From a virus: a DNA stretch of 64,000 nt. The DNA is taken from IMG/VR virus record IMGVR_UViG_3300034418_006779, positions 32,001 to 96,000 of that record, one strand, 5' to 3'. Position 1 is the first letter of the stretch, and every line of letters begins with the position of its first letter. The notes under the pieces are model-generated. The model was given only the letters and a program-made list of their open reading frames with translations. It was not told where the DNA came from and ran no database searches. The position numbers and the translations under genes were made by a program. This document shows positions 5,377 to 63,980 of the stretch, in pieces.

Positions 5377-8300
5377 TGGAAAATCAATCGACAACAAAAC
5401 AGAGTGCTAAGCGTCCTTATAATCTGAACACAGATTTAGCTAGTTGGGCGCAAGACGAGACAATGGCTACCATGATTATTAATGGGGTTATTAACCCTGA
5501 TCAAGAGCGTGGTTATGGATTGTCTAATGAGCCAGGTACTCAAACATGTTATGCGCTAACTAGCGGGTATGAACCATGTGGTCATATCAATGTTGACGAT
5601 GGAGGGGTTGTAGTATTCTCAACTAATGGTACTAATTCAGAGATTGGCATAGCTAGAGATTGCAACTATACTGCGCTAGTTAATAACACATGCATGGGGT
5701 TTGATACAGCTTACCCCATCAAAGGAACGTTTCGCATGCGTAATGGATGCGAGAAAAACATCTACTTTGTGGATGGAAATAATGTAGATAGACACATTAA
5801 CCTGGATAGACTTGATGATTATCAGAGTTCTCCGGGGGTATGGGATTGTGATACAATGACATTATCAGCTACCTTTAGCGTAGCTAGTGTAATTGATATA
5901 GAGGTTCAGGATTCAGGAGGATCCTTACCCATCGGTACCCTCAGAGTATCTTTTAGATATAAAGATAGTTCAGGCAATACTACTCCTGTATTTCTTATAA
6001 CTAACCCTATTATAATTTATGATGAAGGGTCTAATACTGATTATAATAATATAACGGGGGGCTATGATCAAGCATCTGGAATAACAGATTTTGTCACTAG
6101 TAATAAGTCGGTAATATTAACTTTGCAAGACTTGGATACTAGCTATGATACTCTTGAAGTACTGGCCACTCATTATATTACCGGAGACGGAGTTACCACT
6201 GCAAGTTATATTGTAGGAGAGCAAAGCATTAATGGAACTGATTGGACATACACATATTCTGGACTTGGGGTAGGAGCGATAAGTATTGACACAGCTGAGA
6301 TACAAATAGATCCAGTAGTATATCCTACATCTAAAGCTATTACTCAATTCGATAATAGGCTACTTAGAGCGAATGTATGTTCTCATGATATAGATTGGAA
6401 AGAGTTTCAAAAAGAAGCTAATGATATTGCAGTACTATATGCTGCTGCAGAAGAGAACGCATATGATGTATCAAATGATAGAAATGCTAAGAATCCAGTA
6501 ACTCCTCGTGGATTTATGGCTGATGAGATATATGCACTAGGGATTAGATGGATTCTTAATGATGGAACTTTTGGACCAGTGCTTCATATTCCAGGTAGAG
6601 AAGCTGATTCAGATGCCCGTATTAATATTACTACAGGTAACTCGTTTACCCATATTAGAAATCAAGTACCTGGAGGTGGTGATTGGGATACTCAAGATCT
6701 TGATGTAGTAGCAAGTATTACAGATGCAACCACTCAAGTACTTGAAGAAGATGTACATCATTTAGGATTTAGTGCTGGACAAGATCTTCCTAGATGGAAA
6801 GTATATAATACTGCACAACCGCTTGCACCTGGAAACCCGTTGTCTGGCATAATGGGATATCATGAATCCGCAACAACGTATCCTGATACGAGAGATTGCA
6901 ATGATGTACCTATATATCCTCATGATGATTTGGGAGGAGGTAGTTATGCAATGCATAACATTAGACATCACAGAATGCCTGATTCAAATCTAGTACATCC
7001 ATTTAATGGAGAAGATTTGAGATACTTTAGTATTGCTTTATCTAATATTTCTGTTCCAGCAGCTTATTCAGATGAGGTTCAAGGATATCAAATACTTGTT
7101 GGCAAATCAGAAAGAACTGTGTTGGCAAAAGGCATCTACACCTACGCGTTGGAAGCAGAAGTGCTTTCTACACCCCAAGATGTTTATTATCAACCAATGC
7201 CTTTCTACCAACAAGGTACAAGTGATTACAGACATAATTCTGAAACATCTGCGGACACTTCCATTAAGGCATTAGACTTTGGTTGCTTCGTAGGTCCTGA
7301 GTTTCTTTATGCTAATGAGTTTCCAAATGGAGCCTATGTAAAATTTGAAGGCACCGTGCAAGGGGACACGACCGTTGTTAGAGAATATGACAATGGTTCA
7401 GGAACTCCTCCAAATAGAACTGACATTGGATGGAAATCTGAATGGGATACATTTGCTAATCCATCGTGTGCGAATAGAACCATCGATAATTCTATAGCGC
7501 TTGGGTATGATAGAGTATTCGAGGGCTTTAGTCAATCAGGAGAAATTATTGATAATAGGGGACAGCAACAAGAAATTATCTTTTTTAAATTAGTAGACGA
7601 TGTCATAGATTATGCGTCTTCGGATACTGTTGCTTTTGGAGCAACCGGAAGTACCGCTGTCAATTATTATTGGTATGCAAGTATTAAAAACACGAATGAT
7701 GTATATTCTGATTTAGATGCAATTGTCTATGAAGCAGCAGATGATCAGTTTAATGATGCTGCCTTTGGTGCAACCGTGATTCAAAAAGGAGATACTATTA
7801 TTGCACCCTTTGTGCATAAGAAAACAGTAAACTCAGCAGGGGCATATGATGATCTTGTAGGAGGTTCGGACTTTCGAGAAGAGTATTCCGCATCATTTAC
7901 AGTAATGCCATGTGAGTCACGTATTAATTTTGCATTAGCTCATGAAGCATCAGATGTATTTGTTCTTAATAAAAACATTGATGAAGTAAAATTTCTTGAA
8001 GCTGTTATTGAAGATCGTGATGAAGATGGATTTGATGAATCCAACTTTGATGAGCACACTACTTTGTACAATCCAGATATGCATATAACGGAGCAGCTTA
8101 AACCTGCATTCCCTTCATATGTTACAGATTGTTCTGGATGCTCAAATTGCTTTCCTAATATGATAGTATATTCAGGAGTTGCATCTCAAGAAAATGTAGA
8201 CGCTTATAAGATAACTCTTGCTAATAACTTTACTCAAACTGAAGGAACTAGTGGTGAGATTACTGAAATGTTTTCCGCAGGAAGATCTTTGCTTCTTAGA

Positions 8301-33250: not shown

Positions 33251-33685
33251 TTAGAGCTCGATCAGTCTAAGAATATCTGTCTTAGTCTGTCGCTCATGTA
33301 CTTGAACTAGTTGTGCAAAGTTGATATCAACATCAACACTCATTTCTTCGGTTCCTTTCTGGACAATAACACGGACTTCCTCTTGGTCAGGTAGTCGGTG
33401 AATGCGATAGCTGCTACCTTTATGAGAAAAAGAGTACAGACCACCATGAATAGCTTCATTATATGAAACTTCAATGTTATCATCGTCAACGATGTTAAGG
33501 AGTTTGTTAAGGGTTGATTCAACAGTTACAGGGGTTGATGTTAGTTCTGACATATGTAAAAATATTTTAGGTGCGGGGGCCTGACTCGAACAGACGGTCT
33601 CTGGGTCTGAGACCCAGCGAGATACACCAACTTCTCTACCCCGCAGGAGGAGCTCAGATGTCATCAACCTGATATGGTGATTCAA
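33251..33685 (-). CDS. hypothetical protein
   Basis: 144-aa ORF in the tightly packed - strand block. Confidence 0.65.
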   Translation of the reverse strand: MNHHIRLMTSELLLRGREVGVSRWVSDPETVCSSQAPAPKIFLHMSELTSTPVTVESTLNKLLNIVDDDNIEVSYNEAIHGGLYSFSHKGSSYRIHRLPDQEEVRVIVQKGTEEMSVDVDINFAQLVQVHERQTKTDILRLIEL

Positions 33686-48703: not shown

Positions 48704-49794
48704 CAGCATAATCACATATTTCTATGTGGGCTGGACTATATCATCATCCCATAGGGATGGAGGACGCTCTAGCTGGTTATTAAGAACACTATAGTTCTCC
48801 AGTAGTCTCTGCACGTTCCTGAAGTGTACCTCAGGCTTCGCTCAGGATTGCCATACCTTTCGGCTTAGGTTTCCCTGAATTCATCCTCTGCTAACTCAAC
48901 TATTACTAGCTGAGAGGGCTTACTGAAAATAGTAATCCTTTGTAAGGTTTTCCAGTTTTAGTTGCTTTATTCACATTAGGCGCACGTAAAATATGAGCAG
49001 GTAATCCGTTTCTCCCGTTAGGGTTTCGAAGAATCATGTGATCAATTAATTCAAACGATTTTTTCAAGGATTGTCGCTCAAGCTCTGCCGCAGAAGTATA
49101 CTTACCAAGTAGAGTTTTAGATTGGTTATACACATAAACATCAGGCACTCTAGCTGAGAATGCTTTTTGTCTTTGTTTACGTCCTTTCTGACTAATCTTT
49201 CTTGTTTTCGCTGCCGCAGAAAGCTTTTTATTATGCGCTTTCGACATTTTCTTTCCTGTATTCCATACGGGTTTCAACCACTTAGAAACCTGCTTTTGGT
49301 ATTTTTCGGGAACGTCTTTTAATCTAAGTTTAGACGCCTTCACTTGTTTAAAGTATTTTCGAGCTTTCTTGTTGAATTCTCGAAGACTTTTACCTCTATC
49401 TTGTAATTGCTTAGAGGTTAAATGAATAGAATCTGTCGCTAATGGATTAATATTAAATAACATATTCCAATCTCTAGAATCAATATACTTTTGCTCGATA
49501 GCAAGACATTGATTCTTTGGAACACGTTGTAAAATACTAAATTCAAAGGCTTCATAACCATATTTATCAAAAGCATTCTGAAGATGCTTATTCTTATGAG
49601 TTTTATTCTCTAACGATAAAAAATGATGATAGATCCTTTTTGCAAAACTAACTCTGGTAGACCCTATGTAGGATTTACCATTCTCTTTGCACTTTATCTC
49701 ATATATTCCTGTATTCATAATAATCATAATTTAATATAATATACTATAAACCACAGTTAAATACAATAAAGATTGCTGATTTGTGCAAAATCAA
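48704..49794 (-). mobile_element. group I intron 2 in DNA polymerase (1091 nt)
   Basis: P GAATTCAGGGAAA, Q AATCCTGAG, R GTGCAGAGACTA, S ATGATATAGTCC. IGS GTTGAGTT (48900-48893) pairs with exon AACTCGGT ending in U.G. The intron ends in G and splicing restores LNSV|YGK. Confidence 0.92.
48906..49727 (-). CDS. intron-encoded GIY-YIG homing endonuclease
   Basis: TGIYEI...SYIGS; NUMOD3-like PVWNTGKKMS..HNKKLS. Confidence 0.92.
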   Translation of the reverse strand: MIIMNTGIYEIKCKENGKSYIGSTRVSFAKRIYHHFLSLENKTHKNKHLQNAFDKYGYEAFEFSILQRVPKNQCLAIEQKYIDSRDWNMLFNINPLATDSIHLTSKQLQDRGKSLREFNKKARKYFKQVKASKLRLKDVPEKYQKQVSKWLKPVWNTGKKMSKAHNKKLSAAAKTRKISQKGRKQRQKAFSARVPDVYVYNQSKTLLGKYTSAAELERQSLKKSFELIDHMILRNPNGRNGLPAHILRAPNVNKATKTGKPYKGLLFSVSPLS

Positions 49795-49953: not shown

Positions 49954-50883
49954 CATACCTGTTAATCTTCAGTTTCCTGAAGTGTCGGACTATATCTTTA
50001 GTTCTTTCTTCCAAATAAATTGCCTATAATGAGGTTTATACCCATTGCAAGCATTATATATGCTGGAAGCAGTAAAAGTTGGATTTTTTTCTAGAATATC
50101 CTTCATAGAAGGATAAGTATTTAACAAAGTACCTGATGAATCATATTGATGAAAAATGTATTTCTCTTTACTTTTTGAAAGTTTTCTCTTCATTACTTCT
50201 TTTTTTTCTGGGTTGTCTTCCCAGAATTTCTTGAAGAATTTAGATACTTTTTCTCTTTCTTTTGGGTCAGAAAAACGACGTTTGCCACTTTCAGATAGAA
50301 GGTCTCTAGTTTCTTGAGCAGGCATTAATCCTCCTTCAGAATCTAGTCTAAGATTATAACCATGCTTTCTGTCTAAAGAATTAAAACACTTCATCCAATA
50401 TAGTTCTCTTTTAGAGAGATCATCATATTCTGCGTATTCAATAACGAAATATTCAAAATTAGACTCTCCATGCTTATGCCAAGAATTGATTAGATAACGA
50501 TTCTCATCCTTAGATTTCCTATTTAAAGATGATTTATGAGCTTGTATTCTTCTATAGACATCTACAGATTTACCAATATATACTTTATTAGTTATTTTAT
50601 TTCTGATACAGTAAATACCAGATTTTTCCTTGTGTTGTAATTGAGCTTTCATACCTTAATATAAGGTATTATTCTCATAGTTACAACTTATTACCCAACT
50701 AATTGAACTACCGGACGCTTTTTCACACAAGCATTACCATGTGCTACTTCCTGTTATTAAGCCATATCGCTATAGCTCAGGTAGTCTCTGAACGTTCCCG
50801 CTCTGCGGGCTTCGCTGCTGATTGCCTTATTTTATAACTTAGGTTTCCAGCAATTCATCCGGTTAGGACGCAAGTTCGTTTTT
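49954..50883 (-). mobile_element. group I intron 1 in DNA polymerase (930 nt)
   Basis: P AATTGCTGGAAA, Q AATCAGCAG, R GTTCAGAGACTA, S AAGATATAGTCC. IGS GAACTTGCGTCC (50877-50866) pairs with both GGACGT (P1, U.G) and AAGTTC (P10). Omega-G at 49954. Confidence 0.95.
49990..50652 (-). CDS. intron-encoded GIY-YIG homing endonuclease
   Basis: SGIYCI...VYIGKS...GYNL; C-terminal NUMOD1/IENR1-like HTH. The stop codon overlaps the intron S element. Confidence 0.92.
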   Translation of the reverse strand: MKAQLQHKEKSGIYCIRNKITNKVYIGKSVDVYRRIQAHKSSLNRKSKDENRYLINSWHKHGESNFEYFVIEYAEYDDLSKRELYWMKCFNSLDRKHGYNLRLDSEGGLMPAQETRDLLSESGKRRFSDPKEREKVSKFFKKFWEDNPEKKEVMKRKLSKSKEKYIFHQYDSSGTLLNTYPSMKDILEKNPTFTASSIYNACNGYKPHYRQFIWKKELKI

Positions 50884-56962: not shown

Positions 56963-57029
56963 TATCGCCGCTCTACCAGATTGGCGTACTCCTAAATAGG
57001 AGAGAGGATTCGAACCTCCACATCGACAT
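56963..57029 (-). ncRNA. circularly permuted tRNA-like element (YrlA-like topology)
   Basis: UGUCG-AUGU-GGAGG UUCGAAU CCUCU-CUCCUA UU UAGGAG-UA-CGCCAAUCUGGUAGAGCG-G-CGAUA: T arm, looped acceptor stem, D arm, closed by a 5-bp stem. Confidence 0.7.
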
Positions 57030-60177: not shown

Positions 60178-60222
60178 GCTGGATGGAGAGGAATCGAACC
60201 TCTCTTAAGACCGTCCATCCAG
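60178..60222 (-). ncRNA. minimal tRNA-like element (acceptor stem plus T arm only)
   Basis: CUGGAUGG-ACGGUCUUAAG-AGAGG UUCGAUU CCUCU-CCAUCCAG. Confidence 0.6.
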
Positions 60223-63861: not shown

Positions 63862-63980
63862 AGCACGTGGTAGGATTCGAACCTACATCGTTCCCAACTA
63901 GGAAACTGAGAGACTATCAGCACCTAGCAACCTTACAGTCAGTTGAAGGGCGCTCTGGTTTCCGATTGAGCTACACGTGC
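63862..63980 (-). ncRNA. tRNA-like RNA with 64-nt structured insert replacing the anticodon/variable arms
   Basis: GCACGUG/CACGUGC acceptor, UA-GCUC...GAGC D arm, GUAGG UUCGAAU CCUAC T arm. No canonical 7-nt anticodon loop and no encoded CCA. Confidence 0.75.

Follow-up and report, generated by a model that had tools for sequence, protein, structure and literature searches.

Whether a phage gene that keeps every arm of a tRNA except the one that reads codons still serves decoding, awaits splicing, carries another RNA or is used as a shape is the question raised by a 119-nt element that stands ahead of a transglycosylase gene. We analysed it within a window of 64,000 nt, the whole stretch of DNA under study, which covers bases 32001–96000 of a 109-kb IMG/VR viral contig (IMGVR_UViG_3300034418_006779) that is 61% complete. 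The contig also encodes a GroEL-like protein, a large terminase, a major head protein and an ORF of 6,255 aa; the chaperonin is full-length (L011 8781–10346, plus strand; PHROG 5725, E 9e-137) and lies just upstream of the large terminase. Since the best homologues of the SLT (transglycosylase) protein that adjoins the element come from Chitinophagales and Bacteroidia MAGs and the DNA of the locus is found in freshwater metagenomes only, we infer, without proof, that the source is a phage of freshwater Bacteroidota.

Locus and tRNA body

The Rfam tRNA model RF00005 matches 63862–63980 on the minus strand end to end (model positions 1–71) with 39.4 bits against a cut-off of 29, corresponding to an E-value of 2.6e-6 in 2 kb and 1.4e-4 in 111 kb. 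The initial annotation, made from the letters of the sequence, had placed a 119-nt tRNA at these same coordinates, leaving the strand unstated, and had described the acceptor, D and T arms as intact, a description with which both the Rfam alignment and a direct reading agree. Its count of 64 nt between G26 and the T stem, compared with about 22 in a normal tRNA, is likewise exact. The alignment puts a 54-nt insertion at the place expected for the anticodon arm, and overall the insert amounts to 54–58 nt. The features are listed below in 5' to 3' order, with L019 denoting the homologous locus of a second phage.

63974–63980, minus strand: acceptor stem, 5' strand GCACGUG; 7 of 7 pairs with 63863–63869 are Watson-Crick, and pairs 5-68 and 6-67 are changed on both sides in L019
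Between acceptor and D stem, minus strand: U8, read from the sequence
63952–63971, minus strand: D arm with a 4-bp stem GCUC/GAGC and a 12-nt loop containing A14, G18G19 and A21 (Rfam alignment); stem identical in L019
63951, minus strand: G26, read from the sequence and also present in L019
63946–63950, minus strand: CCCUU, 5' strand of the anticodon-stem remnant; CCC pairs with GGG at 63893–63895 and two U face two U
63893–63897, minus strand: UUGGG, 3' strand of the anticodon-stem remnant
63887–63892, minus strand: 6-nt variable region AACGAU, whose last U can form the 15-48 Levitt pair with A15; also 6 nt in L019 in that register
63870–63886, minus strand: T arm GUAGG / UUCGAAU / CCUAC with a 5-bp stem (Rfam alignment); pair 51-63 is A-U here and G-C in L019
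63862–63869, minus strand: acceptor 3' strand CACGUGC and discriminator U73, CCA not encoded; U73 is the same in L019
62942–63835, minus strand: SLT gene, whose product of 297 aa has a hydrophobic segment at the N terminus and an SLT lytic transglycosylase domain (PF01464 at 36.2 bits, PHROG matches)

All 16 of the 16 body pairs are Watson-Crick and every nucleotide of the tertiary core is intact. What the gene lacks is a canonical 5-bp anticodon stem with a 7-nt loop that holds U33, an anticodon and a purine at 37. Default ARAGORN calls no gene at 63862–63980, and the Ile(GAU) call returned in intron mode was rejected as forced, as it takes a D-stem strand for the anticodon stem and so breaks the D stem. 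A tmRNA is not indicated either, with neither an RF00023 nor an ARAGORN match at the locus, a length of 119 nt that is too short and a D arm that is full. No RNA run contains the locus. Contigs from four freshwater DNA runs carry the identical allele and none is without the insert, which in a genome search is no repeat or mobile element within its own genome. A 13-nt complementarity to the mRNA of the giant ORF is at chance level (E 0.55) and was set aside.

The ATG of the SLT gene lies 26 nt after U73 on the same strand, as the description of the element as directly upstream of a transglycosylase gene had implied. This adjacency carries no tRNA meaning, the enzyme being a peptidoglycan lytic transglycosylase by its PF01464 match and not a tRNA-guanine transglycosylase. 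The best relatives of the protein are P0002, at 68% identity, and P0003, at 56% and encoded on a contig of 109.9 kb. ORF165, the tRNA-like gene and SLT are not set apart by any terminator-like site or Bacteroidetes −7 box.

A homologue in a second phage

A scan of metagenome contigs from JGI, first with aligned SLT proteins and then with Rfam, identified L019, where a 123-nt tRNA-model match (2386–2508, 39.5 bits) ends 31 nt ahead of the SLT start codon. The order ORF202-ORF166-ORF165-tRNA-like-SLT is common to both phages, with protein identities of 21–45% over the aligned parts for the three upstream ORFs and 48% for SLT. The two tRNA bodies are identical at 39 of 46 positions (85%). Over the 16 pairs of the body stems in both sequences, 31 of 32 cells are paired, the sole exception being 1-72 in L019, and three pairs (5-68, 6-67 and 51-63) differ on both sides; with a family of two members only, these compensatory changes are not assignable to a lineage. 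The span from G26 to the T stem is 64 nt in the target and 72 nt in L019. The inserts have no significant sequence in common (global alignment z of 0.6), and their MAFFT alignment is unreliable and was not used to build a covariance model. The best local match between them is the 7-mer CAACUGA, at the 5' edge of both.

Since this arrangement is common to phages whose neighbouring proteins are 21–48% identical, the insert-bearing state is, judged from this comparison, ancient and maintained, and not a recent insertion into a dead gene. The initial annotation had named just such an unconserved recent insertion in a dead tRNA gene as the case against its own reading, and both the synteny with L019 and the compensatory changes in the tRNA frame speak against it. 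A body conserved with compensatory changes around inserts that do not align excludes that case, and shows, as far as two sequences can, that the tRNA shape is what selection kept. The target could have lost its anticodon recently.

The comparison also refines which part of the molecule has changed. The anticodon arm had been described as replaced; it is the anticodon loop that is replaced or expanded, whereas the arm is not wholly gone, because the 3-bp CCC/GGG remnant that closes the insert stands in the same register as the 5-bp anticodon stem of L019. Both closing stems share one 3' register, separated from the T stem by 6 nt, with CCC/GGG followed by two U-U in the target and CUUAG/CUAAG in L019; one C-G pair is kept, and two C-G pairs of the target are U-A in L019.

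Further family members of use were found neither by blastn and tblastn of GenBank phages nor in IMG/VR searches by protein and DNA patterns. Two scans of GTDB genome contigs returned none, the 22 matches of one of them being chance hairpins upstream of ordinary tRNAs, intron-bearing archaeal tRNAs and an unrelated repeat. Separately, a stretch of about 140 nt is near-identical in three soil MAGs labelled Saccharimonadales, Methylomirabilota and Eisenbacteria (L099, L107 and L115), which probably reflects either a mobile element common to them or contamination during binning.

Excision and folding of the insert

For each of the two sequences we scored the stem and loop left by every single excision that retains 17 nt and a 4–6-nt variable loop. 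In L019, removal of 50 nt at 37/38 leaves UCUUA / GUGCCA(A/C) / UAAGU with the variable loop GGGUU, that is, a tRNA-Gly(GCC) with U33 and A37 that is consistent with its U73. No single excision from the target yields a stem of at least 4 of 5 pairs together with U33 and R37. The best, with 40–41 nt out, leaves CCC(G/U)U / UUCCUAG / UUGGG, which has the anticodon CCU and keeps U33, C35, U36 and A37 on a stem in which three pairs are G-C, one is G-U and one is a U-U opposition. In an alignment of the two anchored on CAACUGA, the UGC by which L019 completes U33-G34-C35 is precisely what the target is missing. Verdicts of ARAGORN on single-deletion variants were dropped as an excision test, as hundreds were accepted even for controls. 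Because L019 resembles an intron-bearing tRNA-Gly(GCC), the insert probably originated as an intron-like insertion rather than as a displayed domain.

Inserts of this kind are not confined to the two homologues. A pattern requiring the same D arm and an overlong middle found four other insert-bearing phage tRNAs, all of which are restored perfectly or nearly so by a single excision. Two lie on a 102-kb IMG/VR contig (L002 1267–1382 and 2030–2155, hereafter L002a and L002b, with near-identical copies in L005–L008) and carry inserts of 42 and 54 nt on the 5' side of the anticodon; taking 42 nt out of the 5' strand of the anticodon stem gives L002a a UGA arm, and taking 54 nt out at 31/32 turns L002b into Gly(GCC). 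Their common core AAGUUCGCUGACAGCAA and a hairpin with compensatory changes look, at this level of comparison, like those of a small mobile family of tRNA inserts outside group I. The third (L004 6345–6450, minus strand, 106-kb IMG/VR contig) is a tRNA(CAU) whose anticodon stem is intact and whose anticodon loop is enlarged by a 32-nt insert. Perfect 5-bp anticodon stems follow precise excision in L002a, L002b and L004. The fourth (L010 1257–1356, minus strand, 105-kb IMG/VR contig) is a 100-nt tRNA with a normal UAU arm and 26 extra nt, among them the hairpin CCGC-CUGAUAU-GCGG in the variable region, which amounts to a second, Ile(GAU)-like anticodon loop. The L010 record holds 53 tRNA-model matches, one of which, a tRNA-CAU-like neighbour at 1171–1229, matches model positions 8–63 only since its acceptor strands are unpaired. 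That short inserts of other phage tRNAs are precisely excisable on paper suggests that a splicing route may exist in such phages.

These observations bear on the first explanation to be weighed, namely that the gene encodes an intron-containing pre-tRNA whose insert is removed by a route other than group I, with a host or phage nuclease and a ligase, for example host RtcB, producing a tRNA that can decode. The spliced products would be an Arg-type tRNA with the loop UUCCUAG (CCU) in the target and tRNA-Gly(GCC), or less well a UCU tRNA, in L019. Beyond the restored arm of L019 and the clean excisions in the other phages, the target has A20 in its D loop, which is an Arg identity element for E. 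coli ArgRS, and another tRNA of the same phage likewise has a variable region of 6 nt. Set against this are the weakness of the best stem obtained for the target, the fact that the implied splice positions and anticodons of target and L019 do not correspond, and a competing 6-bp hairpin GUUUCC/GGGAAC by which the restored target can bury its anticodon. Both AGG and GGC are also rare codons in the target phage.

Nor does the search for a splicing apparatus favour this course. No profile for RtcB, RNA ligase or splicing endonuclease (PF01974, PF01139, PF09414 and PF09511) has a match in the 61%-complete contig, a result to be read with the failure of the PF09511 control to match anything. Group I introns occur in the anticodon loops of bacterial and phage tRNAs (tRNA-Leu(UAA), fMet, Arg(CCU) and Ile(CAU)), where they are self-splicing and about 200 nt or longer. 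The target likewise has an insertion in the anticodon loop of a bacterial-type tRNA gene, but at 54–58 nt, and with no RF00028 match at E up to 1, it lacks the catalytic core (P3–P9), so that the earlier remark that the insert is too short for a group I intron stands. The insert has no Rfam match to any ribozyme family, while a search with that library detects two group I introns in other parts of the window (48712–48943 and 50710–50864, both minus strand, 92 and 59.9 bits), in the replication-gene block, where they presumably interrupt protein genes. Small self-cleaving ribozymes (hammerhead, twister, pistol and hatchet) have no Rfam match at E up to 1, and a hammerhead was rejected as CUGAUAG deviates from its core. 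The protein-spliced introns of archaea and eukaryotes are similar in being short and in drifting while the exons stay, and L019 has its insert at their canonical 37/38 position, but no 3-4-3 bulge-helix-bulge could be drawn for the target in the sequence or its suboptimal folds (by inspection, not by formal search) and its contig has no EndA-type endonuclease. We know of no such splicing endonuclease, and of no protein-based tRNA splicing, in bacteria.

The nearest precedent is found in the Lak megaphages, some of whose tRNAs contain "enigmatic introns" of 79–114 nt at 37/38 within intact anticodon stems, so that the anticodon is readable (Devoto et al., 2019, PMC6784885, Table S6). These inserts carry a T-arm-like motif of their own (GGTTCGAWTCC-like), have no Rfam match and are left without a mechanism; the Lak hosts are Bacteroidota by CRISPR targeting (PMC6784885). 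The likeness lies in phage tRNA inserts that are far too short for group I and absent from Rfam and in probable Bacteroidota hosts, which for the target is a deduction from the SLT homologues. The target differs in having no T-arm-like motif in its 64-nt region and no restorable anticodon; the Lak pattern of an insert at 37/38, an intact stem and a restored anticodon is found in L019 and not in the target. On balance we consider a spliced, decoding product somewhat unlikely.

A second explanation is the one that the initial annotation proposed, a natural tRNA scaffold on which the body provides processing, stability and the L-shape while the branched insert is the active part, for example as a protein-binding hairpin or decoy. 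Ponchon and Dardel reportedly engineered a tRNA scaffold of this design in 2007, with cargo in place of the anticodon arm for stable expression. The topology of the target is identical, with intact acceptor, D and T arms and a foreign domain closed by the anticodon stem; the difference is that the scaffold is a laboratory design and that sequence comparison does not show the domain of the target to be a conserved cargo. Two hairpins can be drawn within the insert.

63928–63945, minus strand: hairpin P1, CAACU / 8-nt loop / GGUUG; pair probabilities 0.75–0.81, weak taken alone (shuffle p 0.1)
63898–63927, minus strand: hairpin P2, CUAGG-U-GCUGA / UAGUCUC / UCAGU-UU-CCUAG; −10.0 kcal/mol compared with −3.7 ± 2.0 for shuffles

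The pairings listed for the insert in the initial annotation, four in all, are each possible in the sequence, but the 7-bp UUCAACU/AGUUGGG has an ensemble probability of about 0 and cannot form in L019. L019 can form CCAAC/GUUGG at the place that matches P1. Its second hairpin (−8.0 kcal/mol compared with −2.5 ± 1.8 for shuffles, probability about 1.0) is unrelated to P2 in stem sequence and similar in its apical heptamer (UUGUCUA and UAGUCUC, 5 of 7 identical), and in the target P2 competes with the hairpin GUUUCC/GGGAAC (0.57 vs. 0.4–0.5).

For a scaffold with cargo it can be said that the insert has been held at 64–72 nt over a very deep divergence, that both members have a strong hairpin of 9–10 bp near the 3' side, each about 3 sd stabler than shuffles, with similar apical nucleotides, and that the closing stem is maintained by double changes. 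The shuffle tests are biased, as the hairpin segments were picked for their pairing, and the comparison comprises two sequences. In the target, joining the closing stem, P1 and P2 into a three-way junction costs 0.2 kcal/mol over the optimal fold, but in L019 the cost is 3.1–4.5 kcal/mol; the minimum-energy folds of the two central domains differ, and as wholes these domains are not clearly more stable than shuffles (z of −0.8 and −1.8). The hexamer CUGAUA, the anticodon-loop sequence of tRNA-Ile(GAU), occurs in the inserts of the target and L002a and in the extra arm of L010, all found by criteria blind to insert sequence; a rough and post hoc estimate puts its chance occurrence in three unrelated inserts at a few in a thousand. 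Two further structural readings were discarded, a class II tRNA with an anticodon arm and a long variable arm, for which both sequences show two arms in opposite long/short order, and a kissing pair between the P1 and P2 loops (GACU with AGUC), which is possible in the target and not in L019. The only features that recur in the two inserts are one strong hairpin and the closing stem. What remains of the proposed scaffold is an RNA gene that has been maintained within a tRNA frame and bears a foreign domain where the anticodon belongs, while the unalignable inserts, the differing folds and the domain z values give no support to a conserved cargo, and we regard a functional cargo as unlikely.

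tRNA-shaped RNAs of the phage and their possible role

The same genome contains five other matches to the tRNA model or ARAGORN, and four more tRNA-shaped elements were recognized by eye.

Window 33571–33645, minus strand: tRNA-model/ARAGORN match
L001 3924–3998, minus strand: tRNA-model/ARAGORN match
L001 4169–4243, minus strand: tRNA-model/ARAGORN match
L001 7630–7705, minus strand: tRNA-model/ARAGORN match
Genome 8132–8209, plus strand: tRNA-model/ARAGORN match
Window 56963–57029, minus strand: tRNA-shaped element, by eye
Window 60179–60222, minus strand: tRNA-shaped element, by eye
L001 4008–4163, minus strand: tRNA-shaped element, by eye
L001 6556–6696, minus strand: tRNA-shaped element, by eye

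In the ARAGORN drawings all five of the former have abnormal anticodon loops: UC-UCA-GA and AC-GCC-AU (both with C33), CU-CAA-CA (C37), and two 6-nt loops, CUGGUG and UUGGUA. The "Leu"(CAA) gene combines its C37 with a short variable loop despite its Leu anticodon. The by-eye elements comprise a circularly permuted form (T arm, looped acceptor, D arm), an acceptor/T-arm minihelix that stands 28 nt before an ORF start, and two insert-bearing forms with acceptor and T arm around a middle of 80–110 nt; in Rfam these four give only a weak tmRNA-model match (17.5 bits, L001 4008–4163). The "UCA" tRNA does not recode, since TGA is an ordinary stop, used by 31 of the 111 ORFs, and the standard code gives a coding density of 92%. 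The codons matched by these anticodons are rare ones in the phage, making up 11–15% of their families. Taken together, the abnormal loops, the lack of TGA recoding and the match to rare codons do not suggest that these genes serve to supplement decoding. Four tRNA-shaped elements including the target end 3–37 nt before the start of an ORF on the same strand.

This set also weighs on a third explanation, that the target is a decaying relic, an intron-bearing tRNA-Gly whose anticodon was lost, for instance by the 3-nt U33–C35 deletion seen relative to L019, and which is now a pseudogene with arms as yet undamaged. We think this quite unlikely: the missing UGC, the weakening of the anticodon stem to 3 bp and the separate Gly(GCC)-like gene of the phage would fit, but the target body is fully paired with its core intact, the sole mismatch (1-72) is in L019 rather than in the target, all the other tRNA-shaped genes are anticodon-aberrant yet otherwise well formed, which would be unlikely for independent pseudogenes, and inserts that are saturated while the body is 85% identical imply constraint on the body for most of the divergence that separates the two phages.

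Our preferred reading, which we hold tentatively, is that the element specifies an RNA of tRNA shape that does not decode, goes back to an intron-bearing tRNA and acts via its tRNA body. An ancestral tRNA, probably Gly(GCC), would have acquired an intron-like insertion in its anticodon loop. From then on selection would maintain the L-shaped body (U73, the nucleotides of the elbow and the acceptor, D and T arms), whereas the anticodon region was free to drift and in the target phage lost its usable stem-loop. For expression and action we infer the following course. The gene would share a transcript with its neighbours in the early region, which is read leftward; this transcript would be cut at G1 by host RNase P and trimmed after U73 by RNase Z or exonucleases. 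Such processing would free a stable RNA of about 119 nt and leave the SLT mRNA with a 5' end 26 nt upstream of its AUG. The freed RNA would not decode and may work through its body, by signalling where to process or by imitating a tRNA and so occupying a host factor that binds tRNA, and the insert would be inherited baggage, kept folded by the closing stem.

It is the combination of an intact body above the RF00005 cut-off, synteny and compensation with L019, unalignable inserts, the missing anticodon of the target, the aberrant tRNA set, proximity to ORF starts and a single allele in four runs that supports the non-decoding reading. Other observations count against it or its parts. The insert stays at 64–72 nt with one strong hairpin, which argues for some role of the insert, since deletions should have shrunk it if the body alone mattered; a weak tRNA(CCU) can be drawn for the target; and closeness to ORF starts, cited above for a punctuation role, is also normal for ordinary phage tRNA genes.

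Non-decoding tRNA shapes have parallels elsewhere. In plant mitochondria, t-elements are tRNA-shaped, non-decoding elements beside coding regions that RNase P and RNase Z use to form mRNA ends, a form of "tRNA punctuation" (PMC1920247). The target resembles them in its tRNA shape, its want of a usable anticodon and its position on the same strand 26 nt before the SLT start, with cleavage here only proposed; it differs in belonging to another biological system and in being expanded where t-elements are usually reduced. The tRNA-like module of YrlA and bacterial Y RNAs is a circular permutation in which a loop closes the acceptor and the two ends lie in the "anticodon" stem. The topology of the target is the opposite, with open acceptor ends and a closed anticodon side. 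Some phage tRNAs with mutated anticodon loops escape anticodon nucleases while keeping a 7-nt loop and decoding (PMC10264068), whereas the target has no anticodon loop; what it has in common with these and with YrlA is that of a tRNA look-alike, or an abnormal anticodon region, in a setting of phage-host conflict.

Taken one step further, and as a possibility that is itself doubtful, the lineage may maintain a set of non-decoding tRNA-shaped RNAs (expanded, 6-nt-loop, C33/C37, minihelix, permuted and insert-bearing) that are used via the body, for punctuation of early transcripts by host RNase P and RNase Z, for saturating or misleading host factors that bind tRNA, such as tRNA-targeting immune nucleases, or for both, with the anticodon deliberately disabled so that these RNAs stay off the ribosome.

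Short inserts without a ribozyme have been reported in phage tRNA genes once in print, for the Lak megaphages, and without explanation. To these the present locus adds a case in which the insert-bearing state is ancient, the tRNA frame is under selection and the anticodon is dispensable, and in doing so it separates the tRNA as decoder from the tRNA as shape. If the RNA is spliced, it would point to a new bacterial or phage route of tRNA splicing; a stable RNA that keeps its insert would instead give the laboratory tRNA scaffold a counterpart in nature and speak for a class of tRNA mimics in phages.
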